Positions 1 to 64,000 of a stretch of DNA of 64,000 nt are shown piece by piece. A program made the position numbers and the translations under genes. Below the pieces are notes generated by a model that worked only from the letters and a program-made list of their open reading frames with translations, made no database searches and had not been told where the DNA came from. The DNA comes from a virus (Duplodnaviria > Caudoviricetes), in the IMG/VR virus record IMGVR_UViG_3300037312_000330, positions 128,001-192,000 of that record; one strand, written 5' to 3'. Each line of letters opens with the position of its first letter. The first letter of the stretch is position 1.

Positions 1-1515
1 CAGAACTCGCTGTATCGTGGCGCCGAGTACGGGGTAGCCGTCGAGGCGTTCCAGAAGATGCAGAAGCAGTTCCATGCTCTCAGCGTCGCTGACGAGGACA
101 ACTTTGCATGGACGAACTACAACGGCACGTTCAAGACGGCGGCTCGCATTCGCAACACGGCGATCGGCACGTTGCTGGTGGATCTGAGTGGTTCGCCGGC
201 CACTGTCGAGAGCGCGGCGAAGGCTCCGCTAGATCTAGAAGCCGCAGTGCGCAAGTACGAGGTCGTGGTGGCTCCATCCAACTATCGTCGCACCACGGCT
301 CTCGTGACGCCGGCGATGATCAAGAAGGCCAAGGAGAAGGTTGCCGAACTTGGACTGACATCGGCTCTGGAGCGTCGCTACGCCACGATCCACGACATCT
401 CGATCAACAACATCTTGTTCGCTGACCGAGCTGCACGCAAGGTCATTAACGGTGATGCGTTCGACGATCTGCTGGCTGTCACTAGCAGCCGCGTGTCGAG
501 CAAGGCGCTGGACAAGATCGAGGAAGTGCCGATCGAGAAATTCCTCAAAGACATCGTGCCGCGCATCGACAGCATGGAAGTGCTGGTCGAGAATCATCAC
601 AAGGCGAACCTTGTCAGTCTCGTGGCGCCGCAGGACGCAACTGCCAAGCCACTGTTCAAATGGGACAATCGCTTCAGTTGGTCGTACAACGGCGAAGTGG
701 CCGATGCGATCAAGGAACGTGTGAAGAAGGCTGGAGGCAATGTCGAGGGTGACTTGTGCTGCCGTCTCGCATGGTCCAATTACGACGACCTCGACTTCCA
801 TATGATCGAACCTGACGGGTACGAGATCAGCTTCCGCACTCGTGGCAGTGTCTCTCGCTGTGGGGGACAACTGGACGTAGACATGAATGCTGGTCGTGGC
901 CAGACGCGGGAGCCCGTGGAGAACATCTTCTACGGAAACCGACGCACCATGAAGGAAGGCAACTACCACCTGTTCGTGCATCAATACGCCAAGCGTGAGA
1001 CCAAGGATGTCGGCTTCACGGTGCAGTTCGACTTCCTCGGCAAAGTCACGCAATTCACATACGACAAGGCAGTGCCGGACAATGCGAAGATCACTGTGGT
1101 GAAGTTCAAGTACACTCACAAGGAAGGTATCCAGATCATCGAATCCTTGCCTGCTGGCAACGATCCGTCGGCACCTGGAAGCGTGGTTTGGGGAATTCCG
1201 ACACAGACTTACCACAAGGTCAATGTCATGATGCTGAGCCCCAACTTCTGGGATGAGAAGGAGGTGGGGAACAAGCACTACTTCTTCATGCTGGATGGAT
1301 GCAAGAACGACGGCACGGCGCGGGGCTTCTTCAACGAGTTCCTGCGCAGTGACCTCGACCAACACCGCAAGGTGATGGAAATGGTGGGTAGCAAGATGCT
1401 TCTCGAGAACGCTGACGAACAAATTAGCGGCCTCGGCTTCTCTTCTACTCTCCGCAACACCCTCGTGGCCCGGGTCAATGGCTCATTCACTCGCACGATC
1501 AAAATCGTGTTCTAA
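1..1515 (+). CDS. Conserved phage hypothetical protein with YfaP/DUF2135-like domain (5' truncated by window)
   Basis: Frame 1 open from base 1 (QNSLYRGAEYG...); motifs DDLDFHMIEPDG and GQLDVDMNAG resemble YfaP/DUF2135. Confidence 0.6.
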   Translation, partial: QNSLYRGAEYGVAVEAFQKMQKQFHALSVADEDNFAWTNYNGTFKTAARIRNTAIGTLLVDLSGSPATVESAAKAPLDLEAAVRKYEVVVAPSNYRRTTALVTPAMIKKAKEKVAELGLTSALERRYATIHDISINNILFADRAARKVINGDAFDDLLAVTSSRVSSKALDKIEEVPIEKFLKDIVPRIDSMEVLVENHHKANLVSLVAPQDATAKPLFKWDNRFSWSYNGEVADAIKERVKKAGGNVEGDLCCRLAWSNYDDLDFHMIEPDGYEISFRTRGSVSRCGGQLDVDMNAGRGQTREPVENIFYGNRRTMKEGNYHLFVHQYAKRETKDVGFTVQFDFLGKVTQFTYDKAVPDNAKITVVKFKYTHKEGIQIIESLPAGNDPSAPGSVVWGIPTQTYHKVNVMMLSPNFWDEKEVGNKHYFFMLDGCKNDGTARGFFNEFLRSDLDQHRKVMEMVGSKMLLENADEQISGLGFSSTLRNTLVARVNGSFTRTIKIVF

Positions 1516-1530
1516 CTTGAAAGGTAAACA

Positions 1531-1950
1531 ATGGACCAGAACATCAACATCTTCGAACAGGCCTCCCGTCTGGCGCTGCGTTTCGATTCCCCGAAGGGCA
1601 AGCTGTCTGTTGAGGATCTGTGGAACCTGCCGCTGCAGTCCACCAACAAGGACAAGGCCAACCTCGACGACATCGCGATCGCGCTGAACGAGCAGAACAA
1701 GACGGCCGCGCAGACCCTCTCGTTCGTCTCGCCGACGACCTCCTCGAAGGAGAACGCCGAAGTGTCGCTGAAGTTCGAGATCGTAAAGTACATCATCGGC
1801 GTCAAGGTGCGCGAGCGTGACATCGCGGCCCAGGAAAAGGAACGCGCCGAAAAGAAGCAGGAGCTGCTGGCGGCGCTGGAGCGTGCGGAGAACCGTGCGC
1901 TGGACGCCAAGTCGCCGGAAGAACTCCGCGCGATGATCGCGGCGATGTAA
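1531..1950 (+). CDS. Conserved phage hypothetical protein
   Basis: RBS AAGGT; IFEQASRLALRFDSPKGKLSVEDLWNLPL N-terminus; coiled-coil C-terminus. Confidence 0.8.
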   Translation: MDQNINIFEQASRLALRFDSPKGKLSVEDLWNLPLQSTNKDKANLDDIAIALNEQNKTAAQTLSFVSPTTSSKENAEVSLKFEIVKYIIGVKVRERDIAAQEKERAEKKQELLAALERAENRALDAKSPEELRAMIAAM

Positions 1951-1957
1951 GTCGCAT

Positions 1958-1977
1958 GGGTGGCCTTCGGGCCACCC
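1958..1977 (+). terminator. Hairpin terminator with UUCG loop
   Basis: GGGTGGCC-TTCG-GGCCACCC just after stop at 1950. Confidence 0.75.
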
Positions 1978-2175
1978 CTTCACCATGATCTTCTGGTCTG
2001 AAGAACAACAGTCATGGATGTGAGACCGGTGGAACTGCGGTAACGCTACGCCCCTGCGGTCTTGGACTGCAGTCCATCTCCACTTCAGCAACGGTGATCC
2101 AGTTCGTGAGGAGGACCTTCCTCGTCTCGAACAAGCCAAGTTGGCACTGGAAGCAGAGAGGTATAAATAGGTTGT

Positions 2176-2403
2176 ATGGACAAACCACTCCTGAGCGCTG
2201 ACAAGATTCAGCTTGCGGACATCATCAACGACTTCCGCTACAACACGAAGCCTACGGACATGAGTCCGCCGAACATGAAGCAGGAACAGTTGACAATTCG
2301 CAACTTGGCCATCATCGATCTGACAAACAAGATCGCCAGCGAGATGGCTCCGGAAGACAGAGAGAAATTCCTGGAAAGAGCACTTGCGAGGAGAGGCGAG
2401 TGA
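2176..2403 (+). CDS. Hypothetical protein
   Basis: ORF with AGGT RBS, coupled to next gene. Confidence 0.65.
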   Translation: MDKPLLSADKIQLADIINDFRYNTKPTDMSPPNMKQEQLTIRNLAIIDLTNKIASEMAPEDREKFLERALARRGE

Positions 2404-2648
2404 CACATCTAATGTCCGCCCTAGAAATGCGTTCTGCTATGCGTCTTCCAGATGGTCCGAACGCCGGGCGCGTCCGATTGTTTGCTGAAGCACAAAAGCG
2501 TGCTCTCGAGCAGAAAGTGTATGAGATGCACCTCAACTTTGCCGAGTTCGGTTACTCCTGGAACGATGTCCAATGGATCCAGGACTTAGGATTTACCCTC
2601 AACCGAAATGGCGCGTGTTTGTGGTGGGAGGTAACATGGAACGAATGA
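2400..2648 (+). CDS. Hypothetical protein
   Basis: GTGA overlap with previous gene. Confidence 0.6.
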   Translation: MTHLMSALEMRSAMRLPDGPNAGRVRLFAEAQKRALEQKVYEMHLNFAEFGYSWNDVQWIQDLGFTLNRNGACLWWEVTWNE

Positions 2649-2687
2649 CAAAGCAATGGCCATTCATCAGCACTGCCTTCCGAAAGG

Positions 2688-2939
2688 ATGAGGATGAAAG
2701 AACAGAGTGTCACTACGAACATCAAGGAATCGTACGAGCAACTGCGTGCTATGGTGGAGAGGCTCGACATCAAGATCGTGACAGCAACACAGCATCCTCG
2801 TCCGGATCCCGTGTGGCACCATCCACGTCGCACATCTCTTCGTCATGAATACGAAGCGGAGATGAGGCGTCTGTATCCCGGTTGGGAATCCCCGCCTAAC
2901 GATATCCTCATCATTGACTACATCACACTTCTACCATGA
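2688..2939 (+). CDS. Small hypothetical protein with DnaB-like motif fragments
   Basis: IVTATQ and ILIIDYI; stop overlaps next ATG. Confidence 0.5.
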   Translation: MRMKEQSVTTNIKESYEQLRAMVERLDIKIVTATQHPRPDPVWHHPRRTSLRHEYEAEMRRLYPGWESPPNDILIIDYITLLP

Positions 2940-3283
2940 GCGACAACACGTTTGAAGACCCCAAGTACTCTTGGGAGTCTGGCTATCAACCTTACTGCCT
3001 CCGCTGCAACACAATGTATCGCATGCGACGCAACGACGACGGATGGAAGTGCCAAGGACGTCGGTGTGGTCTGCAGATCACCAAGAGTGGTGAGAGTGTG
3101 CCCGACGGCAAGAAAGGCCCGATAGACAACTTCGCAGACAACATGCGTGGACGGTCGATCATCGACAGCATGATCGAGAATCGCTATTCGGAAGTTGGCC
3201 CGTCGGACGATCCGTTGGAAGAGGTCCGTCGCATTCAGGAAGCAGGTGAACTACTGCGTGGTGTCTTGTCAAAAGGAAAATGA
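2936..3283 (+). CDS. Hypothetical protein with Zn-ribbon-like CxxC/CxxxxC
   Basis: YCLRC...KCQGRRC; ATGA coupling at both ends. Confidence 0.7.
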   Translation: MSDNTFEDPKYSWESGYQPYCLRCNTMYRMRRNDDGWKCQGRRCGLQITKSGESVPDGKKGPIDNFADNMRGRSIIDSMIENRYSEVGPSDDPLEEVRRIQEAGELLRGVLSKGK

Positions 3284-3456
3284 TGGAGTTCCACGAACGA
3301 CCTGACTGGTGGTTGCACCACGCAGTGGATAGCTATCTACGCGCGGAGTTCGCAGCTACCGATGAACACGTGTCCACGGTTTGGGCACATCGCATGTGGT
3401 TCGAACTGCTGATGTGGGCAGCAGAGGAGCCAGTTGTATGGCAGGAGTGGTGGTGA
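3280..3456 (+). CDS. Trp-rich small hypothetical protein (58 aa, not in ORF track)
   Basis: MMEFHERPDWWLHH...WQEWW*; ATGA overlap upstream, TGATG overlap downstream. Confidence 0.6.
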   Translation: MMEFHERPDWWLHHAVDSYLRAEFAATDEHVSTVWAHRMWFELLMWAAEEPVVWQEWW

Positions 3457-3659
3457 TGGACAAGAAACAAGCTGAAGATGAAGCGTCTGCCGTCAGTAGG
3501 TGGCAGAAAACAGTGGGACGGGCTCTCAAGTGCGATTGGTGCAACGGCAGTGGTCGTCAATACGCGCCGATTTACGACGACCCGGCTCTGGGGTACACGG
3601 AAAACGGTCCGTGTACGTGGTGTAACGGTACTGGCAAGGACATGACGAAAGTCTTCTGA
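3456..3659 (+). CDS. Small DnaJ-type zinc-finger protein
   Basis: CDWCNGSG ... CTWCNGTG (two CxxCxGxG repeats). Confidence 0.7.
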   Translation: MDKKQAEDEASAVSRWQKTVGRALKCDWCNGSGRQYAPIYDDPALGYTENGPCTWCNGTGKDMTKVF

Positions 3660-3661
3660 TC

Positions 3662-3874
3662 ATGGAACAGGTACGAATCACAAGGCCGTGGCCTTTCAGG
3701 TCTACGGACCAGCGTCTTGCATCGCAACAACAGGCGTTCGACAACTGCACGGCGCGTGGATACCGACCAAGTTCACTTCCTCCACAGTGTGCTTATCCCT
3801 TCTGCGAACCGCCCGAGTGCTGCGGCAATCCGCCGCCACGCAGACCTGATCCCTTCGATGGGACGGAGTGCTGA
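3662..3874 (+). CDS. Pro/Cys-rich hypothetical protein
   Basis: ORF track; in operon order. Confidence 0.5.
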   Translation: MEQVRITRPWPFRSTDQRLASQQQAFDNCTARGYRPSSLPPQCAYPFCEPPECCGNPPPRRPDPFDGTEC

Positions 3875-3875
3875 C

Positions 3876-3997
3876 ATGCCTAGCAGACTGATGAGTGTCA
3901 CCAGCATTGTGATCCCAACCTAGGATACGCGGACAACGGTCCATGTCCGTGGTGTGAGGGAACTGTCGAGGATAAGACAAAGGTCTACATTTCTTAG
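3876..3997 (+). pseudogene. Frameshifted paralogue of the 3456-3659 C-terminus
   Basis: DPNLGYADNGPCPWCEGTVEDKTKVY matches DPALGYTENGPCTWCNGTGKDMTKVF; ATG at 3876 is one base out of frame. Confidence 0.45.
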
Positions 3998-4005
3998 GAG
4001 AAGAC

Positions 4006-4173
4006 ATGATTTTCAAGTTGGAAGAAAGTCCTATCACCCCCGAAAAGGTGATCGTCCCGATCGACGGTGACGGATTTGCTGTCTACGAACTGTTGGAAAA
4101 AGCTGGATTGCACAAGAACGTTCGCGTTGCGTGTTGGGACGGATACGAAGACTGTATCGTCTTCAACGACTGA
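4006..4173 (+). CDS. Small hypothetical protein (55 aa, not in ORF track)
   Basis: RBS AGGAG; MIFKLEESPITPEKVIVP...CIVFND*. Confidence 0.65.
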   Translation: MIFKLEESPITPEKVIVPIDGDGFAVYELLEKAGLHKNVRVACWDGYEDCIVFND

Positions 4174-4182
4174 GGAACTCAC

Positions 4183-4416
4183 ATGGAGCTCAACCCTGTC
4201 AAGACCGTAACGTCAAAGACCACGTACACTCACCGCATGGAGTTCGATCTGGCTACTGTATTGAAAGCGTTGGGCATCCCTGAAAATTGCTCCGACATTG
4301 TGATCGAGTTGCCTGGAACTCCATCGTCACAGGCACAGACAATCAACTTGCCTCTCAAGTTTGGCCGGATTGTGGCAACTTGGGAGACACAAGAACAGGA
4401 GACCAAGAATGGGTAA
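4183..4416 (+). CDS. Hypothetical protein
   Basis: RBS GAGGA. Confidence 0.7.
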   Translation: MELNPVKTVTSKTTYTHRMEFDLATVLKALGIPENCSDIVIELPGTPSSQAQTINLPLKFGRIVATWETQEQETKNG

Positions 4417-4708
4417 GATCGAGGACATCAACAGTTTCCGATTGAGAACCGGATGCGGTCTGCGTGAAGCCAAAGACGCCATCGACAGGTACGGTAGCTT
4501 GGAAAAGGCGCTGGCTGCCTTGCATCCTGCAGATCCTGCAGCGGAACTGGATCCGTATGCGCGCGCAGTGGCGGATCGGGAACGTTGGCACGCAAAATCA
4601 TCTGAGTATCGGAACGGGTTGATTCGTATCCTGAACAGCACAACAGATGCAGATTCAGAGATCAAGGAGCTAGCAAAAGCTGCTATCCTGCGGGGCGATT
4701 ACCTGTAA
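4409..4708 (+). CDS. Hypothetical protein with L7/L12-CTD or EF-Ts N-terminal-like helical hairpin
   Basis: INSFRLRTGCGLREAKDAID; RBS AGGAG before ATG 4409. Confidence 0.55.
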   Translation: MGKIEDINSFRLRTGCGLREAKDAIDRYGSLEKALAALHPADPAAELDPYARAVADRERWHAKSSEYRNGLIRILNSTTDADSEIKELAKAAILRGDYL

Positions 4709-4710
4709 AT
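4703..4710 (+). promoter_or_regulatory. Recurrent motif CTGTAAAT (candidate phage promoter)
   Basis: Just upstream of the topoisomerase operon; recurs upstream of other replication genes. Confidence 0.5.
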
Positions 4711-4743
4711 AATACCAATACCACCGCACAGGACAGAAAGAGA

Positions 4744-6642
4744 ATGGCGAAGAAGTACGACACCGAAGATATTGAACGGTACGCTGGCCTCAAGGGAATC
4801 CGCAAGAAACCCACTCCGTATATCGGCCCGAACGACGGCGACGGTCTATGGACTTGTATCCGAGAGCCACTCGACAACTGCGTCGACTTGATTCTCAAGG
4901 GCATTGGGAACAACTTGGCGCATCTGATGTTCGATCCTGAACCCAACGTGTACTGGATCATCGACGCTGGTCCTGGGTTCCCGGTTGGAACTAAAGTGTT
5001 CGAGAATGAACACGGCCAGAAGGAGAAGCTGAACACCTTCTACGTGGCAACCGGCCTGACGCACGCTGGTTCCAACTTCAAGGGAAACGCCACTTCACGC
5101 GGAACGCACGGCATCGGTATCAAGGCCACCAATGCGATGTCCAAGCGTTTCCAGGTGTGGACCTGCCGTGATGGTCAGTGGTGGACCATCAAGTACAAGG
5201 ACACCGTCAAGCAAGGTGAACCTGAGAAATGCAAGGCGCCGAAGCTGCCACATGGCATCAAGGTCAAGAAGGGTAGTGTCATCCGTGCGGAACCCGACTT
5301 GTCCTTGTTCACCAAGGATGCCAAGATCGATGCGTCTGCCATCCAATCGTGGTGTGAACTCACAGCCTATCTTGTTCCTGGCATCCAGGTCAAGTTCACC
5401 AACCGTAAGGGCAAGACGTTCGAGCTCCTGCACAAACGTGGCCCTATTGAGTTCATCGAGAAGCGGGTATCAGAACTCAAGTGCAACGTACAAAAGAAGA
5501 TGTTCCAACACCACAGCCAGCTTATGGATGTGGTGATCGCGTTTACGGACGCGGATGGCGATCAGATTTCTGCCTACACCAACGGCCTCCACAACAAGGA
5601 CGGCGGTGAACACGTGACGGCTGTCATGGACGGGATGTTCAAGAGCTTGAAACCGTTCTGGCCGAAGACACGCGGCAAAGACAAGAAGAAAGAAGCACCG
5701 TTCAACATGAACGACCTGCGCGATGGTCTGGTTGGTCTCGTGAATGCCAAGGTCGCGGCACCGAAGTTCAACAACCAACCCAAGGACAAGTTGGTTGACG
5801 ATCGCGTGTATCCGGAAGCTTACCCGGAGATGGCACAGGCATGGACCAAATTCTGGGAAGCGAACAAGTCACTGGCAAAGAGCATCGTGGATCGTGCCAT
5901 GGAGCTCAACAAGGCGACCACCAGCTTCAAGGCTGACAAGAAGCTGATCAAGAACGTGAACAGTGCCAGCAAGGGTCTGAAAACCAAGCTGTCTGGCATC
6001 GTAGGTAACGCTCCGGTGGAGAAGCGTGAACTCTTCATCGTAGAAGGCGATTCAGCGGCGGGCACTGCAAAGCGTGCTCGCGACAAGAGCTTCCAAGCCA
6101 TCTATGCTTTGCGCGGCAAACCATTGAACGCAATGGAAGCGCAACAGGCGAAGGTTAACAACAATGCTGAACTCGTTGGTCTGCTAGCGGCAATCGGTGT
6201 TAAGCTGGACGCCAAGGACACTGAGAAGTCGCTCAAGGCAATGCCCTACGGCAAGATCATCAAGCTTGCCGACCCGGACGTTGATGGCAAACACATCAAC
6301 GTGCTGATCGATGGCAACATCTGGAAGTATGCACCGCAGGTCATCACGAGTGGTCGCATGTACGCGGTGGTCGCTCCACTGTACAAGTGTCTGCACAAAG
6401 GCAAGACGTACTTCGGCATGACCAAGGAAGAGATCTACAAGAAGACTGGCAGTCAGAAGGTGGACATCCAGTACATCAAGGGATGGGGTGAGATCAACGA
6501 AGAAGACATGTCCGTGGCTCTCGATCCAGGTGCACGTAAGCTCATCCGAATCATGCCTCCTTCCAAGAAGGAAGCCGAGGAGTTCCAAGCTCTGCTCGGC
6601 AAGAACGTGGCGTACAGGAAGAAGTTGCTTGGCGTAGAATGA
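4744..6642 (+). CDS. gyrB: Type IIA DNA topoisomerase, ATPase/TOPRIM subunit (GyrB/ParE-like)
   Basis: GHKL motifs REPLDNCVD, DAGPG, GTHGIGIKATNAMS; TOPRIM ELFIVEGDSA, LRGKPLN, DPDVDGKHI. Confidence 0.95.
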   Translation: MAKKYDTEDIERYAGLKGIRKKPTPYIGPNDGDGLWTCIREPLDNCVDLILKGIGNNLAHLMFDPEPNVYWIIDAGPGFPVGTKVFENEHGQKEKLNTFYVATGLTHAGSNFKGNATSRGTHGIGIKATNAMSKRFQVWTCRDGQWWTIKYKDTVKQGEPEKCKAPKLPHGIKVKKGSVIRAEPDLSLFTKDAKIDASAIQSWCELTAYLVPGIQVKFTNRKGKTFELLHKRGPIEFIEKRVSELKCNVQKKMFQHHSQLMDVVIAFTDADGDQISAYTNGLHNKDGGEHVTAVMDGMFKSLKPFWPKTRGKDKKKEAPFNMNDLRDGLVGLVNAKVAAPKFNNQPKDKLVDDRVYPEAYPEMAQAWTKFWEANKSLAKSIVDRAMELNKATTSFKADKKLIKNVNSASKGLKTKLSGIVGNAPVEKRELFIVEGDSAAGTAKRARDKSFQAIYALRGKPLNAMEAQQAKVNNNAELVGLLAAIGVKLDAKDTEKSLKAMPYGKIIKLADPDVDGKHINVLIDGNIWKYAPQVITSGRMYAVVAPLYKCLHKGKTYFGMTKEEIYKKTGSQKVDIQYIKGWGEINEEDMSVALDPGARKLIRIMPPSKKEAEEFQALLGKNVAYRKKLLGVE

Positions 6643-7103
6643 TGGAAGACGAAGCCATCTGGAGGCGAAAGCTCTCAAACCTACGCAGCAATGCCACTCG
6701 ACGCGGCATTGAATACCACCTAAGCTTGAAACAGTACGTTCGTCTTGCTGAGAAAGCAGACATAACCCATTCGGATATAGGAAGGGGCGGTGGTCAATAT
6801 GTGATGGCCCGAAAGAGAGATCGGGGCTGCTATGAGATTGGCAACTGTCGTTTCATCACCAAAGAGGAGAATACTGCCGAGATGAACCTCTATGGTGGTG
6901 GTCAGCGTCGAATAGATGCCATGACTGGTCGCACAAAAGAGACTCATCCGGGTGTAGCTCGTCAGGCGATGAAGAAGACTGGTCGTAACAAACACAACGA
7001 CCCTTCAGTAGCTAGAATGGCCGAAAAGATGGCTGGCAGATCGAAGGCCACTCATGAACATCTGTTTAAGATGTCCCTCAAGAGGAGCAAAGCCTCATCA
7101 TAA
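6639..7103 (+). mobile_element. Free-standing putative homing endonuclease (HNH-like domain + NUMOD-like repeats)
   Basis: NATRRGIEYHL...YVMARKRDRGCYEIGNCRFIT..EN; three GR[TNS]K..[HD] repeats at C-terminus. Confidence 0.55.
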
Positions 7104-7106
7104 AGG

Positions 7107-7346
7107 ATGGACGGGCAAGTACGTGAAACGCAAGAAACTCTTAGGAGTGGAATGATGACGTTAGACGAACGCAAGGCGCAGCTTCTTCCTAAGCTGACAC
7201 CAGAATTCTTGGCTACTCTTGCGGAAGCAGTCCGTGTAGTAGGTTGGGAAGTGGACGCCCATGAGACAACTTCCCTAGTGAAGGTGTTGCATGACTACGT
7301 TGGATCGCCGCGTCCTGATGATCTCTCTCCATACGAGGACGAGTGA
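7107..7346 (+). CDS. Hypothetical protein
   Basis: ORF track; coupled to next gene. Confidence 0.6.
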   Translation: MDGQVRETQETLRSGMMTLDERKAQLLPKLTPEFLATLAEAVRVVGWEVDAHETTSLVKVLHDYVGSPRPDDLSPYEDE

Positions 7347-57881: not shown

Positions 57882-58385
57882 ATGGCGAAAATGGACAAAG
57901 CAGTTGCGAAGCGCTTCGAAGAACTCGAAGAGAAGCTGGAAGACCTGAAGAAGGCTTACCAGAAGCTCGCGAAGGGTGGCGCGGCTGCCAAGGGTGGCAA
58001 GGGCAAAGCCAAGGACGAAGATGATGACTCGGACGATGATGACGAGGACTTCGATCTCGACGATGAAGACGAGGTGAAGCCGGCCAAGGGCAAGAAGGGT
58101 GGCAAGGCTGCTGCCAAGAAGACTGCCAAGAAGGGTGGAAAGAAGTCCAAGGACGAGGACGAAGACGAAGATGACGACGCCGATGAAGACGGCGACGACG
58201 ATTCGGACGACGAAGACGACGAGGACGAGAAGCCTTCCAAGAAGGGCGCCAAGGGCAAGAAGGGCGCTGCCAAGAAAGCCGGTAAGAAGGGTGGCAAGAA
58301 GTCCAAGGATGAAGACGAGGACGACGATGACGAGGACGACGAAGACGGCGACGATGATGACGACTTCGAAGATGACGACGAATGA
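57882..58385 (+). CDS. Charge-block low-complexity protein (coiled coil + alternating K-rich and D/E-rich blocks)
   Basis: RBS GGAG; internal duplication of AKGKKG.AAKK..KKGGKKSKDEDED. Confidence 0.8.
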   Translation: MAKMDKAVAKRFEELEEKLEDLKKAYQKLAKGGAAAKGGKGKAKDEDDDSDDDDEDFDLDDEDEVKPAKGKKGGKAAAKKTAKKGGKKSKDEDEDEDDDADEDGDDDSDDEDDEDEKPSKKGAKGKKGAAKKAGKKGGKKSKDEDEDDDDEDDEDGDDDDDFEDDDE

Positions 58386-58413
58386 TCGTCCTGCACTGAG
58401 CTGAAGTAAGATT

Positions 58414-58450
58414 AGGGGCTCGTCTGCAAACGCGGGCGAAGCCCCTTTCT
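58414..58450 (+). terminator. Rho-independent terminator
   Basis: AGGGGCT-CGTCTGC-AAAC-GCGGGCG-A-AGCCCCT-TTCT. Confidence 0.8.
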
Positions 58451-58482
58451 TGTTTCTGAGAACAACCAGACGTAGGAACAGC

Positions 58483-60132
58483 ATGGCAACAAAAGCTAAG
58501 GGCAAAGGCAAGACAGAGGAAAAGGCCAAGCGACGCAAGCTGCGTGAGAAGGAGAAGGCTGCTAAAGTAAAGGCCAAGATGAAGTCAGCAAAGAAGCGTG
58601 GCGGTCGAACCGAGGCCCTTGAAGAAGGGGAGGAAGTAACTCCGGCAAAAGGCAAGAAAGACAAGAAGGTAAAAGAACACGATACTGCACCAGAAGCACG
58701 CAAGCTGGCCTACGGTCGTGGCATTAAAGAGCCTGACGCCATCCCAGGCATGGACATCGACGATGTCCTGAATGGCATCGAGAAGAAGACCGGTCTTGGG
58801 TCCACTGGTCTTGGTGGAGAGTCGGACACTCGCATGTCCACTGGTCTGCTGATGTTGGACCTGATTTCCGGAGGCGGCATTGCCCCTGGATGGTACACCA
58901 CGTTCGGTGAAGAGCAATCGTGTAAGTCGACTCTGGCTATGAGCATTGCCAGTTTCTCTGTCACACAAGATGTTCCAATCATCGTCTATGCTGACTTCGA
59001 GGGTAGCACTACACCGAACTACGTGCAGAACATCCTGAACACCCAAGGTGTGAAGGCCACGGTGGAGGATGTGTTCGGAGTCAAGGATCGAATGGGCAAC
59101 TATGTCAAGCGCCCACGCATCCGTTACTTGCCGTGCGACACCGCAGAACAGTTCTTCGACTATCTTGCAATGCTGGAGCGCACGCTTCCAGACAAGATCT
59201 ACGAAAACGGCCAATGGTGGTATGTATATGAGAACACCAACGAGAACCGCAAGCGTCTCTCTCAAAGTGGTCACGAATACGACAAGAAGCGTTTCTCCAA
59301 GTACAATAAGTTCTACGTGCCTGCCAAAGACGGAAGTCTGCAGGTACTGATGATTACGGACTCCTATCCTGCGATGTTGCCGGAGCGTCTGGACGTAGAT
59401 GAACCGGGTGCAGGTCTGGCTGCCGTAGCTCGCATGTTTGCCGAGCAATTGCCTCGCGTAAAGGGTAAGCTGCGCAAGAAGCGTATCGCGGTGATTGGCG
59501 TGAACCAACTGCGTGACGTTCCGATGGCGAAATACGGCCCTCCGAAGAAGCAAGCTGCCGGTAATGCGGTGCGCTACTATTCGGACGTTCGCTTCCAGAA
59601 CACTGCGCGTGCTCTGTCAGCAATCGCCGATGCGCGTCCCACAAAGGATAGTCCTTATGAAGTAGAAGGTAGTGTAGAATACGAAGGCAAGGACTACTAT
59701 CGCTACATCGACGTTCGTGGAGAGAAGAACAAGTACAGTCAACCAAACCTGCGCTGCTGGCTGCGTCTGTGGATTGAAGATGGAAACGGACAGGCTCGTG
59801 GATTCGATCCGGTGTGGGATACCTACGAATACTTGAAGCAGACAGGCCAGATGATTGGCAGCCGCAAGAAGAAGCTCGAAATGAAGTTGGTTGGCAACGA
59901 AGCCAAGAAGCCAATTGAGTGGGAAGAATTCAAGCGCCTGATCCTTGGCGAAAAGAAAGAGATCGCTGAGATCTGCAAGAAGATCGGCATGAAGCCGTGC
60001 TTTGTGCGTAAGATCTGTTTCAAGCAAATGGAAGCTAAGAAGGGCATCGACATGTACTTCGAGCAACGCCGCAAGAAGGCGATGGCGAAGGGCAGCGACG
60101 ATGACGATGACAGCAGAGGTAGTGAAGATTGA
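58483..60132 (+). CDS. recA: RecA/UvsX-family recombinase with Lys-rich N-terminal extension
   Basis: RMSTGLLMLDLISGGGIAPG, variant Walker A GEEQSCKST, ITDS, IGVNQLR, GNAVRYYSDVR. Confidence 0.85.
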   Translation: MATKAKGKGKTEEKAKRRKLREKEKAAKVKAKMKSAKKRGGRTEALEEGEEVTPAKGKKDKKVKEHDTAPEARKLAYGRGIKEPDAIPGMDIDDVLNGIEKKTGLGSTGLGGESDTRMSTGLLMLDLISGGGIAPGWYTTFGEEQSCKSTLAMSIASFSVTQDVPIIVYADFEGSTTPNYVQNILNTQGVKATVEDVFGVKDRMGNYVKRPRIRYLPCDTAEQFFDYLAMLERTLPDKIYENGQWWYVYENTNENRKRLSQSGHEYDKKRFSKYNKFYVPAKDGSLQVLMITDSYPAMLPERLDVDEPGAGLAAVARMFAEQLPRVKGKLRKKRIAVIGVNQLRDVPMAKYGPPKKQAAGNAVRYYSDVRFQNTARALSAIADARPTKDSPYEVEGSVEYEGKDYYRYIDVRGEKNKYSQPNLRCWLRLWIEDGNGQARGFDPVWDTYEYLKQTGQMIGSRKKKLEMKLVGNEAKKPIEWEEFKRLILGEKKEIAEICKKIGMKPCFVRKICFKQMEAKKGIDMYFEQRRKKAMAKGSDDDDDSRGSED

Positions 60133-60134
60133 CG

Positions 60135-60157
60135 GAAGGGCCCTAGCGGCCCTTTCT
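60135..60157 (+). terminator. Hairpin terminator
   Basis: GAAGGGCC-CTAGC-GGCCCTTTCT. Confidence 0.7.
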
Positions 60158-60299
60158 CGTCTGTAGATTCAACGGAGAACGAACATGACAGTGGCGACAG
60201 GTGCCACACAGAAGACGGCGGGCAAGGGATGGTGGATGTACTCGGTCCAGTCACTGCATCTGTACGAGCCACACATGGCGTGGGCGAAGAAGACCTGAC

Positions 60300-60307
60300 C
60301 TGTAAAT
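60300..60307 (+). promoter_or_regulatory. CTGTAAAT motif
   Basis: Upstream of the kinase-sbcD-dnaX operon. Confidence 0.5.
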
Positions 60308-60337
60308 GGTTAGGCAACCAACAACCTAGGAGTCGGT

Positions 60338-61027
60338 ATGAACATCATGTTCCTGAACGGAGCGGGTGGCACTGGCAAGTCCAGTATCCTGCGTGAGATC
60401 GAAGCACTGCGCCAGAAGAACGGCAAACTGCTGGTGCATACTCTGTACAGCAGCACGCGCGAATCGTATGCGCAACTTGGTATCTCCAACGAGACGTCCA
60501 GTATCGACATGGATGATGAGACGCGTATTCGCCTTCAGTTGACAATCATGGACAACGAACGTGCTGCCATCCGCAAGAAGGTAGAGGAGATCCGCGGTCG
60601 AGAGGGTTACATGGGATACGATCTGCTGGTGGTTGATCGTGGTCCGATGGACCGCATGGCCTACTACCTGCTGACCATGATGCAGTGCTCCAAAGGAGCG
60701 TGCGCTCCGTTCTTCGACATGCTACGTCGCAACGCGCAGTTCATCAAAGAACTAGCCCCAGGACACGTGATCCAAATCGACTTCACCTATCCGGTGCATT
60801 GGGACACCAAGGATGGCTTCAGGCAGGAGAACGAGTTCCAAACATTGGCGCTCAGTCTCATGACCAGCAACATCCTACAGAGATACGCGGCGGGCACTGG
60901 CTATAAGACGGCGTTCTGGTACGATCACGACTTCGCAACGCACAAGGGCGCAGAGCAGAAGGCGAAGGCCATCATGGAGCGCTACACTCACCTGTGGCCG
61001 TTCGGTCCTGACTATAGCTGGGTGTGA
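60338..61027 (+). CDS. P-loop nucleotide kinase-like protein (dNMP kinase/AAA_28-like)
   Basis: FLNGAGGTGKSS; LVVDRGPMDRMAY. Confidence 0.7.
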   Translation: MNIMFLNGAGGTGKSSILREIEALRQKNGKLLVHTLYSSTRESYAQLGISNETSSIDMDDETRIRLQLTIMDNERAAIRKKVEEIRGREGYMGYDLLVVDRGPMDRMAYYLLTMMQCSKGACAPFFDMLRRNAQFIKELAPGHVIQIDFTYPVHWDTKDGFRQENEFQTLALSLMTSNILQRYAAGTGYKTAFWYDHDFATHKGAEQKAKAIMERYTHLWPFGPDYSWV

Positions 61028-61034
61028 GGAGACT

Positions 61035-62069
61035 ATCATCGAATACATTGGCATCGGTGATCTACATGGAGACAAGATGGATGGCATTGTAGCGGATGCC
61101 AATACCAAGATCATCAAGAGCGTTCGCAAGTGCTTCAAATATGCCGTAGAACGCGGTATCCGTGATGTCATCTTCTATGGGGACTTGTGCGAGAAAGCTC
61201 GAATGAGCTACGAGTTCCAGGTTGCCCTATACACGTTGCTTCTGGATACCAAGTGGCGTGATCTGCGTATGCACTTTATCCTTGGAAACCATGACTTCCA
61301 AGAGAACGGCAGTCACAGCCTTGAAGTATTGAAGGTGGTGTCAAATCTGACAACTAACCACATCCGTGTGTACACAGAGCAAACCCTTGTGAAGATCGGT
61401 GGACGCAAGTTCAACATGATGCCGCATCCTGTTCTGGATACACGTCGGGACAGTCTGAACATCGGCCACTTTGAAGTAAAGAACAGCTACAGGGACAATG
61501 GAAGACAGATCGACCACGGATTCACCACCCCTCATAAATGCTGCGTGGGTCATCTCCACACCAACCACAGAGTGCGAAGGGTACATTACAGCGGAACGCT
61601 CTATCAGACAAACTTCGGAGAGTCGTTGCCAAAGTACTTCCATCACGTCCGGTACGAAGACGATGACCCTTACGCTGCCGAAGTTGAGAACGTACCGTTT
61701 GAGCCACCTTGGAAGCTACTCAATTTGGAGGTAGAAACCGAGGAAGATCTACTTAAGATTGAGAACGATCCAGACACTCTATATAAGCTGTTCATCCACG
61801 AAGGATTGAATCTGGACATTGATGATGTTCTGCGTGAACACCCCAACGTAGTGCGGCACAATAAATTCAAGAACAAAGAGGATCTCAAGGAGCTTATAGA
61901 ACAAGAGTGGGACTTCTCCACAAACGCTTGGGCCGAGAAGGTGGATACGCGTGAGGTTCTCACCGAATACATGACCAAGAAGTCCGGTCTGAACAAGCAA
62001 GAAGTGAAGCGTGCGTTCAAACTGTTTGACCGCATTGTGAATAAACAAGTAGCTACTGTAGAGGAATGA
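61035..62069 (+). CDS. sbcD: SbcD/Mre11-like metallophosphoesterase nuclease (probable non-canonical start)
   Basis: IGIGDLH (upstream of first ATG), FYGDLCE, ILGNHD, GHFE, VGHLH...YSGT. Confidence 0.8.
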   Translation: MIEYIGIGDLHGDKMDGIVADANTKIIKSVRKCFKYAVERGIRDVIFYGDLCEKARMSYEFQVALYTLLLDTKWRDLRMHFILGNHDFQENGSHSLEVLKVVSNLTTNHIRVYTEQTLVKIGGRKFNMMPHPVLDTRRDSLNIGHFEVKNSYRDNGRQIDHGFTTPHKCCVGHLHTNHRVRRVHYSGTLYQTNFGESLPKYFHHVRYEDDDPYAAEVENVPFEPPWKLLNLEVETEEDLLKIENDPDTLYKLFIHEGLNLDIDDVLREHPNVVRHNKFKNKEDLKELIEQEWDFSTNAWAEKVDTREVLTEYMTKKSGLNKQEVKRAFKLFDRIVNKQVATVEE

Positions 62070-62380
62070 ACATGACTATCCATTGTGTTGACCCGGCTCA
62101 TATCTATGAACTCGGTGGCGGACAAACTGTGCGCTTTCTCAAGAAGGAACGTGTCTCTCCAGAGAGCACAGAGCTCCGCCTCGTGTACGACGGAACAACC
62201 AACGAGGAACTACTGGAAGTGCTGATCGATCGCACACAGACACTACAAGTCAAGTTCCCGTGCGACGAGAATCTTGCGGCCCTGACGTACATGCACAAGG
62301 CACTCGCCGCCTTCAACGAGCGCACGCGTCGACGTCAAAGCCAGAATGTCGAAGGCACGGACAATCCTCATACATCGTGA
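62066..62380 (+). CDS. Tad1-like anti-defence signal-sponge candidate
   Basis: GTTNEELLEVLIDR...Q..FPCDENLAALT...AL...N.R...R...NVEGT. Confidence 0.65.
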   Translation: MNMTIHCVDPAHIYELGGGQTVRFLKKERVSPESTELRLVYDGTTNEELLEVLIDRTQTLQVKFPCDENLAALTYMHKALAAFNERTRRRQSQNVEGTDNPHTS

Positions 62381-62784
62381 AACCGATAGAACATATCTGG
62401 AAGACAGTAGCACTGGCTGGTGTCTATTTCGAGTACCAGCCAGATTGCTTCTATGCTATTGAACTTCCACGTGGATTCCGGTCCGTATCAAAGCCAACGG
62501 TTACCGATCTAGGCCCAGAGATAGCAGCGGCATTGGAGCCTCTAATTGGTGGAGTTCTGGACAACATTACAGAGATCCAAATTCAGCAATCCATAGAGTA
62601 TGTGCTGCGGAAGTATCGTGAAGTAGATGCTATTCTAGTGTGGGCTGACGAAGAGAGGGCCAATCCAGTTCTGATCGACACCATCGTAATGCGCAATGAA
62701 GGTGGTGGACGACTACGTGTCAGACCGTACTTCGATCCGGCAGAGATTATGGACGAGGCACTTGCCAAGGCAGGAATACCATGA
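62377..62784 (+). CDS. Hypothetical protein
   Basis: GTGA coupling. Confidence 0.65.
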   Translation: MKPIEHIWKTVALAGVYFEYQPDCFYAIELPRGFRSVSKPTVTDLGPEIAAALEPLIGGVLDNITEIQIQQSIEYVLRKYREVDAILVWADEERANPVLIDTIVMRNEGGGRLRVRPYFDPAEIMDEALAKAGIP

Positions 62785-63026
62785 GTCGGATGAAACAACA
62801 TCCTTCACGTTCGCTAGGTTTGCAAAGCCTGTACGAAGAGTCCGCTATCGCTGTACATAAGAGGTTCAAGCATTGTGCAGAAGCAACCGGGCAACTTGCA
62901 GAGTGGGAAGCAGAAGACAAAAGGCTTCGAGAGAAGTTCCAACGGACGCGTGACTTCATCAAGAAATACGGACAGCACACTCTAACGACCAACGCAGATG
63001 GCTACTACGAAGAAGCAATCACCTGA
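62781..63026 (+). CDS. Hypothetical protein
   Basis: ATGA coupling. Confidence 0.6.
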   Translation: MSRMKQHPSRSLGLQSLYEESAIAVHKRFKHCAEATGQLAEWEAEDKRLREKFQRTRDFIKKYGQHTLTTNADGYYEEAIT

Positions 63027-64000
63027 AAAGAGAGAATCTGTCGCAGCCGCGCAGTTCCACAACAAACACCGACCGAAGACACTGGACAGAGTGATTGGTC
63101 AGGAGGCCGCAGTCAAACGCCTGAAGGGCATCATTGAAAGTGGCAGGATCCCAAGCACCATGTTGTTCACAGGTCCACCTAGTGCGGGCAAGACCACCTT
63201 GGCGAGAGCCTTCTCAGCGGATCTGCTGGGCGTCAAGAACCTGAAGCACCACCCAGATTGGCATGAGCTAAACGGTGCTGCAGACGGTAACATTGACAAT
63301 GTCCGTAACGTGATGCGGATGGCACGATTGCGTCCCCGGCAAGGGAAGCGTCGAATCATCATGATCGACGAATGCCACGGACTGTCCGGCGCCAGTCTAG
63401 AAGCGGTGCTAAAACCTCTGGAAGAACCGAGCCCACTAACTCTGTTCATCCTGGGCACAAGCGAGCCAGAGAAACTGAAGAGCAGTTTGAAGACGCGTGG
63501 CTCACCGTTCGCACTGAAACCGTATTCGCGAGAAGAGATCACCAAATACGCCAAGAGGATCGTCAAAGCTGAAGGCATGGACTACATGTCCGACGAGTTG
63601 ATCGCAACGGCTGTGGAGAATGCCAACGGTGAACTCCGTACTCTGTGCCAGATCCTGGAAGCAGTGGTTCAGGGAGCAGGCAACAGCAAGAAGGTGTCCA
63701 AGGAAGACATCCTGCAGTCGCTGTCAACCATCGAGACAGATGACGCCAAGGTTGCAATGAACATCCTATACGAGACGTATAGCGGCAATTTGGAAGGCAT
63801 CTATAGACACCTGCTGGACACCACCGACGGATATCGGATGGTCACACTGTTGATCGGGTTCAACACATTCCTGATCAATGCCACTGTGCTCAAGGGCGAG
63901 AAGCATCGCAGCGTTTGGTGGAACAAGAACAACAAGGACATGTGGGAAGCAGTCAAGGAGATGAATGTGGGACTACGTCAAATGGCAGAAGTGCAGAGAC
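62998..64000 (+). CDS. dnaX: Clamp-loader AAA+ ATPase, DNA polymerase III gamma/tau-like (3' truncated; not in ORF track)
   Basis: KHRPKTLDRVIGQE, LFTGPPSAGKTTLAR, IMIDECHGL, LKPLEEP, FILGTSEPEKL. Confidence 0.9.
   Translation, partial: MATTKKQSPEKRESVAAAQFHNKHRPKTLDRVIGQEAAVKRLKGIIESGRIPSTMLFTGPPSAGKTTLARAFSADLLGVKNLKHHPDWHELNGAADGNIDNVRNVMRMARLRPRQGKRRIIMIDECHGLSGASLEAVLKPLEEPSPLTLFILGTSEPEKLKSSLKTRGSPFALKPYSREEITKYAKRIVKAEGMDYMSDELIATAVENANGELRTLCQILEAVVQGAGNSKKVSKEDILQSLSTIETDDAKVAMNILYETYSGNLEGIYRHLLDTTDGYRMVTLLIGFNTFLINATVLKGEKHRSVWWNKNNKDMWEAVKEMNVGLRQMAEVQR

Follow-up and report, generated by a model that had tools for sequence, protein, structure and literature searches.

Tad1 soaks up the alarm molecules of the bacterial defense systems Thoeris and CBASS (cyclic oligonucleotide-based antiphage signaling system). 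All 10 Tad1 homologues tested, which came from four clades and included one from Opitutaceae sp., inhibited type I Thoeris (Leavitt 2022), and the Opitutaceae sp. homologue is printed as a short form of 104 amino acids (aa) in Table S1 of Hadary et al. 2025. Tad1_53 and Tad1_57, which also have short N-termini, inhibited type I Thoeris in plaque assays, and Tad1_57 inhibited in addition a CBASS that signals through cyclic GMP-AMP (cGAMP) (Hadary et al. 2025, Table S2). Among jumbo phages, gp184 of PhiKZ has been described as a Tad1 that blocks CBASS and Thoeris through signal sequestration; a 2026 review (PMC13282480) names it the sole anti-defense protein so far described in such phages, and annotation tools have already called tad1 in other jumbo phages. 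Here, we describe a short-form Tad1-family gene in IMG/VR record IMGVR_UViG_3300037312_000330, a jumbo phage whose virus genome of 248,884 bp is rated 100% complete by CheckV. The gene is a 104-aa open reading frame (ORF) on the plus strand (62066-62380; ATG at 62066, TGA at 62378-62380) of a 64,000-nucleotide (nt) stretch of this record (bases 128001-192000), which we refer to as the window and to which all positions apply. Its membership in the Tad1 family rests on three independent lines, namely, sequence, fold, and predicted assembly, and a compact Tad1-family sponge is probably the best explanation of the gene as a whole.

The motifs on which the initial annotation of this DNA, made from the sequence alone, had based a Tad1-like sponge (G43..NEELLEVLIDR..FPCDEN..ALT...R...R...NVEGT) are present in the ORF and lie far above chance in sequence searches. 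With the single protein as query, a phmmer search of PDB chains returned only Tad1 entries at E values of 7.4e-5 to 2e-4 (residues 41-99), followed by PhiKZ gp184 at 5.9e-4, and PHROG 2428 matched at 1.6e-19. Homologues with 80%, 72%, and 50% identity exist. A word-indexed homologue search found only 5 relatives, and the clade to which the protein belongs became visible only through an exhaustive phmmer search of 1.84 billion representatives, which retrieved 1072 clusters at E<=1e-3 (158 at E<=1e-10), many of them about 100 aa long and aligned with the query over its full length. An alignment of 91 short homologues from this search (A1) served as the clade profile and is the basis of all clade counts below. 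Against the PDB, the A1 profile matched the solved Tad1 chains at E values of 1.7e-14 to 3.6e-13 (CmTad1, 1.7e-14; CbTad1, 2.6e-13 over profile positions 7-100 of 102), and the next match was again PhiKZ gp184 (PDB 8Y6V chain I, residues 167-227) at 2.7e-6. Because the profile match is nearly full length, the N-terminal strands are homologous to those of Tad1, and the relationship is not confined to the hairpin.

When the typical short form P0063 served as the query, 1583 clusters were retrieved at E<=1e-10, and all 120 of the matches listed for it carry a precomputed PF24729 (Acb2_Tad1_hairpin) domain, some of them on megabase bacterial contigs. By tblastn, only the C-terminal hairpin (residues 42-99) was matched, in 73 phage records, mostly of Bacillus phages and one of them labeled "anti-thoeris viral protein." Megablast of window positions 58000-64000 against cultured phages gave no match, a Pfam scan of the protein gave a single, chance-level match to DASH_Dam1, and PADLOC reported nothing, as expected of a library that holds models of defense and not of counter-defense.

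An AlphaFold2 (AF2) model computed on A1 has a predicted local distance difference test score (pLDDT) of 96.7 and a predicted template modeling score (pTM) of 0.83. It comprises five strands, which form an N-terminal antiparallel beta-sheet, followed by a pair of long helices and a C-terminal tail, so that the protein is predicted to have the whole Tad1 fold. A structural match to Tad1, which the initial annotation had set as a check on its own reading, was found by two programs: the top 20 Foldseek matches in the PDB are all Tad1 (TMq 0.60-0.76), and VIA-align places model residues 1-101 on residues 12-124 of CbTad1, with Tad1 matches at Z scores of 9.8-9.9 and root mean square deviations (rmsd) of 1.7-2.0 Å over 94-95 residues and the best non-Tad1 row at a Z score of 7.4.

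Prediction of two copies together scored 0.81, whereas none of 3 controls scored above 0.00. Of 30 proteins solved as same-chain pairs, 20 reached the mark for a dimer, as did 1 of the 23 whose structures hold a single chain; these counts are rough, because we used our own alignment. Dimer runs share at least 90% of their contacts, with a partner pLDDT of at least 87, and the modeled interface, which packs helix 2 on helix 2 and includes the sheet, takes in pocket residues 12, 14, 56, 60, 64, 69, and 86, while tail residues 99, 101, 102, and 104 contact the partner protomer. In Tad1, homodimers are arranged head to tail, with a four-helix bundle built from their helices and ligand pockets made by the interface. 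The Tad1 dimer has been described with the same kind of interface (Leavitt 2022), and the success of the dimer prediction may stem from likeness to solved Tad1 complexes. With full-length profile homology, the fold, and a predicted Tad1-like homodimer in agreement, the core of the initial annotation, the identity of the protein as a Tad1-like sponge, is upheld.

We mapped ligand-pocket residues onto the protein through the alignments of the PDB phmmer and A1 profile searches. CbTad1 contacts gcADPR (glycocyclic ADP-ribose) through 11 residues (H29, G55, R57, R78, F82, F87, N92, R109, R113, G120, and N122 [Leavitt 2022]); R90 and T97 are its cyclic-trinucleotide and hexamer residues, and Q8, L13, and L119 are cGAMP contacts (Li et al. 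2023). Seven of the 11 gcADPR contacts are identical in the window's protein. R78 corresponds to R56, which is kept in all 91 clade members, and R109 and R113 to R86 and R90, each kept in 90 of 91; H29 is represented by H12 (His in 82/91), N92 by N69 (kept in 80/91), and G120 by G97 (kept in 76/91). F87 aligns with F64, a position that is Phe in 28 and Leu in 34 of the 91. CbTad1 Y31, which is not among the 11 contacts, corresponds to Y14 (Tyr in 89/91). Two contacts are replaced, F82 by L60 (Leu in 82/91) and N122 by D99, at a variable position (Asp 26, Asn 17 of 91), and the profile alignment pairs R57 with R29, in a loop that differs and at a position that varies in the clade. At the trinucleotide site, R90 is replaced by D67 (among the 91 clade members, Arg in 22, Glu in 15, Lys in 12, and Asp in 10), and T97 aligns with T74, which is variable. 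This site characterizes some Tad1 proteins and is not part of how the family was first defined.

Judged from these alignments, the clade conserves the pocket for gcADPR and cyclic dinucleotides, and the site for cyclic triadenylate (cA3) is not conserved and is charge reversed in the window's protein. The cyclic-trinucleotide (e.g., cA3) site is probably non-functional here, because the phosphate-binding Arg (CbTad1 R90) is Asp67. The statement in the initial annotation that pocket residues differ therefore applies to the trinucleotide site (R90 to D67) and not to the gcADPR and cyclic-dinucleotide pocket, where seven contacts are identical and only F82 to L60 and N122 to D99 depart from CbTad1.

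The reading frame of the gene is open over only 111 codons, so that the short N-terminus, which had been remarked on from the start, is genuine and not the artifact of a wrongly called start. A Shine-Dalgarno-like AGAGGA on the plus strand (62060-62065) directly abuts the ATG at 62066 and lies 6 nt before the ATG at 62072, and the closest homologue (P0002, 80% identical) starts at the equivalent of M3; on the strength of this spacing and of the start of P0002, the true start is probably the ATG at 62072, giving a product of 102 aa. The N-terminal antiparallel beta-sheet (residues 6-41, including H12 and Y14) is encoded at 62081-62188, as placed by DSSP of the AF2 model and by the profile alignment. 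The codons of the two long helices (residues 46-63 and 67-92), which form the Acb2/Tad1 hairpin in the alignments and the AF2 model, occupy 62201-62341; this hairpin carries the gcADPR-pocket equivalents R56, L60, F64, N69, R86, and R90 and the trinucleotide-site equivalents D67 and T74. The C-terminal tail (residues 93-104; 62342-62377) begins, in the alignment with CbTad1, with QNVEGTD, the equivalent of the CbTad1 lid (residues 116-122), and continues into a short extension with P101 and H102.

Members of the short clade come in two shapes. In the first, a segment of 15-18 residues, containing an NFE... insertion, separates the equivalents of Y14 and F24, and the protein mostly ends right after VEG(T/K); in the second, this segment has 11 residues. 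In 41 of the 91 clade members, VEGT is followed by a short tail with a His where the window's protein has H102. The window's protein, P0002, P0003, P0006, and the copy on contig L004 (see below) combine the 11-residue segment with the His-containing tail, and in two proteins that have been tested, those of TAV5 and Tad1_51, the insertion is present and the tail is absent.

All genes of the block that holds the Tad1-like gene are on the plus strand and tightly packed, with starts and stops that overlap or abut. The block comprises a RecA-like gene (58450-60132; Pfam RecA, 6.6e-14), a P-loop protein (60338-61027; a weak, below-cut-off match to AAA_28), and an SbcD-like metallophosphoesterase (61077-62069; PHROG 100 at 1.3e-25, with a weak Pfam Metallophos match below the curated cut-offs), whose stop codon (62067-62069) overlaps the ATG at 62066 and ends 2 nt before the ATG at 62072. 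Downstream, a 135-aa ORF (62377-62784) starts with a GTG that overlaps the Tad1-like stop (GTGA), the ATG of an 81-aa ORF (62781-63026) overlaps the stop of the 135-aa ORF, and a DnaX/clamp-loader-like AAA+ gene (62998-63999; Pfam DNA_pol3_delta2, 6.7e-17) runs past the window end. Neither the 135-aa nor the 81-aa ORF has a Pfam or PHROG match. The initial annotation had placed the Tad1-like gene between sbcD and dnaX; it does abut the SbcD-like gene, but these two small ORFs without a known family intervene before the clamp-loader-like gene.

We found no terminator-like sites on the plus strand at 60301-64000, and a scan for sigma-70 promoters and terminators gave fewer sites than in shuffled sequences and none on the plus strand near the Tad1-like gene. 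There are 11 copies of the heptamer TGTAAAT in the window, against an expectation of 3.7, and none of the shuffled sequences had as many. Ten of these copies are on the plus strand, among them those at 60301-60307, 56507, and 57806. One copy lies 31 nt upstream of the P-loop gene's start codon (60338) and could mark the promoter of a transcript that includes the SbcD-like and Tad1-like genes. Just before the RecA-like gene, a 167-aa protein is encoded (57882-58385) in which Lys/Gly/Ala-rich blocks alternate with Asp/Glu-rich ones over nearly the entire length, and the RecA-like protein itself is extended at its N-terminus by a Lys-rich stretch of approximately 70 residues (58450-58700).

The arrangement recurs on L004, a 72-kb contig from a related phage, which encodes an SbcD-like protein 68% identical to that of the window. 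Its gene order is RecA-like, P-loop protein, SbcD-like, Tad1-like (99 aa, 50% identical), two ORFs of 189 and 140 aa (6293-7245) that have no Pfam or PHROG family and look unrelated to those of the window, and a clamp-loader-like gene. The pair of ORFs after the Tad1-like gene thus differs in length between the two phages (135/81 versus 189/140 aa), while the flanking genes are conserved; the pair has the look of a short variable site next to a counter-defense gene, which makes its members candidates for further counter-defense genes. The claim that the gene belongs to a replication operon rather than to an accessory island is half right: it is borne out by the tight packing and by the position kept in a relative, with the qualification that the next two ORFs differ between phages, so that a variable slot is present too. 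A second case of a short Tad1-like gene within a replication/recombination block is found on L005, an unrelated 21-kb viral contig, where a RecA-like gene and a DnaB-like helicase gene, the latter immediately, precede a 92-aa short Tad1-like ORF with a TTG start (1504-4908).

Elsewhere, homologues occupy other settings, amid head or baseplate genes: that of Shewanella phage Thanatos-2 lies between inh and an RNA ligase, and that of Acinetobacter phage ABMM1 adjoins baseplate genes and the genome end. Counter-defense genes are commonly located in early or middle operons. Given the varied settings in ABMM1 and Thanatos-2 and the occurrence in early or middle operons, the short Tad1-like gene thus behaves like a mobile accessory gene with a tendency to settle in such operons, a placement suited to the need for the product before the host signal accumulates.

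As a compact Tad1-family sponge, the protein would be made from the transcript of the recombination and replication genes, probably in the early or middle period of infection, and would assemble into dimers and probably into a hexamer like that of solved Tad1. The pocket at the dimer interface would then enclose the Thoeris signal made by Toll/interleukin-1 receptor (TIR) proteins (1''-3' or 1''-2' gcADPR), possibly together with certain cyclic dinucleotides, so that the host effector would never be activated. We infer this sequestration of gcADPR, and hence the ligand, from the conserved residues and from tests on relatives.

A number of observations weigh against this reading. PF24729 is not reported for the protein even at E<=10 (the gathering cut-off is 27 bits). 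A fresh PF24729 scan is, however, also silent on the relatives with 80% and 72% identity, for which the domain does appear in precomputed tables; the homologue P0004 scores 29.2 bits, and precomputed PF24729 is on record for P0002-P0005. The missing Pfam match thus reflects a limit to the sensitivity of the model and is not evidence against homology. (A six-frame PF24729 search of the phage genome found nothing, but its controls gave no signal either.) Of more consequence are differences in and around the pocket: the adenine-stacking Phe of CbTad1 (F82) is Leu here as in 82 of the 91 clade members; the beta4-alpha1 loop, which holds CbTad1 G55 and R57, is differently built, so that the equivalents are uncertain, and the Arg at position 29 is variable in the clade; Q8 and L13 of CbTad1, which contact the guanine of 2',3'-cGAMP, fall outside the structurally aligned range, which begins at CbTad1 residues 12-13; and CbTad1 R90 is also a hexamer contact, so that D67 could alter assembly. 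In the screen of Hadary et al. 2025, Tad1_51 (98 aa) failed to inhibit any of the seven systems included: two CBASS, two Pycsar, and Thoeris of types I, II, and IV. Among the published tested Tad1 proteins, we saw none from the sub-branch with the compact turn and the Pro-His tail.

Some of these differences could mean that the protein is a Tad1-fold sponge whose sub-branch has shifted to another nucleotide signal, one that is missing from published screens or is not bound by canonical Tad1, such as another isomer of cyclic ADP-ribose, an ADP-ribose conjugate, or a cyclic mono- or dinucleotide. We regard this as unlikely. The inactivity of the short-form Tad1_51 against all seven systems would fit such a shift, as would the Leu that replaces F82 across the clade, the Asp that replaces N122 here, the rebuilt beta4-alpha1 loop, and the Pro-His tail, which contacts the partner protomer in the model; moreover, the Acb2 and Tad2 families include members with switched specificities (Hadary et al. 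2025). Set against this are the seven identical gcADPR contacts, the nearly invariant R56, R86, and R90, and the inhibition of type I Thoeris by the short-form proteins TAV5, Tad1_53, and Tad1_57, and poor expression can equally give a negative result in a heterologous screen. Taken to its full extent, with the compact beta2-beta3 turn, the Leu in place of the adenine-stacking Phe, the loss of the trinucleotide Arg, and the partner-reaching Pro-His tail as its grounds, the argument would give the sub-branch a ligand range unlike that of every tested Tad1 and have it capture an immune signal that no known Tad1 sponge takes up, which seems doubtful to us. The possibly new ligand specificity raised in the initial annotation finds nothing positive in its favor, as the short architecture turns out to be that of a large, recognized, and partly tested clade; the modeled tail and the compact segment leave some room for a shifted range, and nothing positive points there.

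That the Tad1 fold has been reused for something other than anti-defense, for example in a small accessory factor of a neighbor such as the SbcD-like nuclease, the RecA-like recombinase, or the clamp loader, or to regulate replication through nucleotide binding, is improbable. The idea draws on the location of the gene within a tightly packed recombination/replication block, on the retention of this position in the related phage (L004), and on the short homologue of L005, which comes directly after a DnaB-like helicase gene and downstream of a RecA-like one. But homologues sit in quite different settings in ABMM1 and Thanatos-2, which fits a mobile accessory gene; what the clade conserves is the residues of the ligand pocket and not a protein-binding surface; the L004 copy has diverged more (50% identity) than its SbcD-like neighbor (68%); and early or middle operons are a usual site of counter-defense genes. 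Still more improbable is a decayed member that has retained the fold and lost binding. The trinucleotide-site Arg has indeed been lost (D67), and 19 of the 84 sponge homologues in the screen of Hadary et al. 2025 had no activity, but the frame is intact, the model is very confident, homologues are conserved at 80%, 72%, and 50% identity, and the pocket residues are retained. We therefore continue to favor a compact Tad1-family sponge.

Under this preferred reading, a gene left blank by Pfam in an uncultured 249-kb soil phage receives a confident functional label, and a free-standing Tad1 is added to those of jumbo phages. Routine Pfam annotation would leave the sub-branch to which the gene belongs without a label. 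The presence of the gene would imply that the host, or hosts in that habitat, use signaling defenses of the TIR type or the cyclic GMP-AMP synthase (cGAS) type. The residue map predicts a gcADPR pocket that is kept and a cA3 site that is lost; with this combination, the protein would offer sponge biochemistry a naturally occurring separation-of-function variant. The family assignment is not in itself new, nor is a Tad1 in a jumbo phage, and the short clade is already counted as Tad1; the known picture of Tad1 action is unchanged by this gene, which represents a sound annotation and no new type of system.

Among described sponges, Acb2 (Pfam Phage_gp49_66) shares with Tad1 the two-helix hairpin that Pfam treats as common to both (PF24729), and both are hexameric sponges, but Acb2 protomers have two long helices and no multi-strand N-terminal sheet (Hadary et al. 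2025). No Acb2 chain is among the listed matches of the PDB phmmer, A1 profile, Foldseek, or VIA-align searches, and we set Acb2 membership aside for this reason and because the predicted five-strand sheet fits Tad1 better. Searches of the phage genome for Acb2 itself (PF13876) and for Tad2 (PF11195) found nothing, although in the case of Acb2 the controls gave no signal either.

Among tested proteins of the short architecture, the Tad1 of the Opitutaceae sp. TAV5 prophage (IMG 2510264739) is about 46% identical to the window's protein (43 of 93 aligned positions, counted by eye) and shares with it the motifs GH.YEL, F..K, DGTTNEE, FPC.EN, RT..R, and NVEG. It differs in having the NFE... insertion between strands 2 and 3, in lacking the Pro-His tail, and in keeping Arg at the cyclic-trinucleotide position (PCREN versus PCDEN). 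A degenerate DNA pattern for this homologue was unmatched in the genome contigs, and the protein is not among the 120 matches listed for P0063. Tad1_51 (IMG/VR 3300014205_000435), which its motifs place in the same short clade, looks by eye the most similar to the window's protein in the panel of Hadary et al. Also by eye, F64 (CbTad1 F87) is replaced by Met in Tad1_51, and KKMESHYN stands where the window's protein has KFPCDEN.

CbTad1, from a Clostridium botulinum prophage (PDB 7UAV, 7UAW, 8SMD, 8KBE, and 8KBF), has the same fold (Z score of 9.9; rmsd of 1.8-2.0 Å over 94-95 residues; 30% identity), the head-to-tail dimer predicted for the window's protein, and the C-terminal NV.GT lid, which is kept here. 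The window's protein is about 20 residues shorter (104 versus 124 aa), is without the first approximately 11 residues, including Q8, and has shorter sheet loops; it carries the extra Pro-His tail past the lid, along with Leu for F82, Asp for N122, and Asp67 for Arg90.

PhiKZ gp184 (PDB 8Y6V chain I), likewise from a phage of more than 200 kb, has a Tad1-like C-terminal hairpin but is built and delivered in another manner. It is a minor inner-capsid protein of 230 aa whose N-terminus is wedged into the capsid and whose C-terminal part is freed by the head protease and injected. We rejected a virion-packaged form of this kind for the window's gene, the frame of which spans at most 111 codons and the predicted fold of which fills residues 1-101. 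Unlike gp184, the protein described here is a free-standing domain of 102-104 aa that has no room for a packaging extension and is encoded among replication genes, and it would therefore have to be made after infection.

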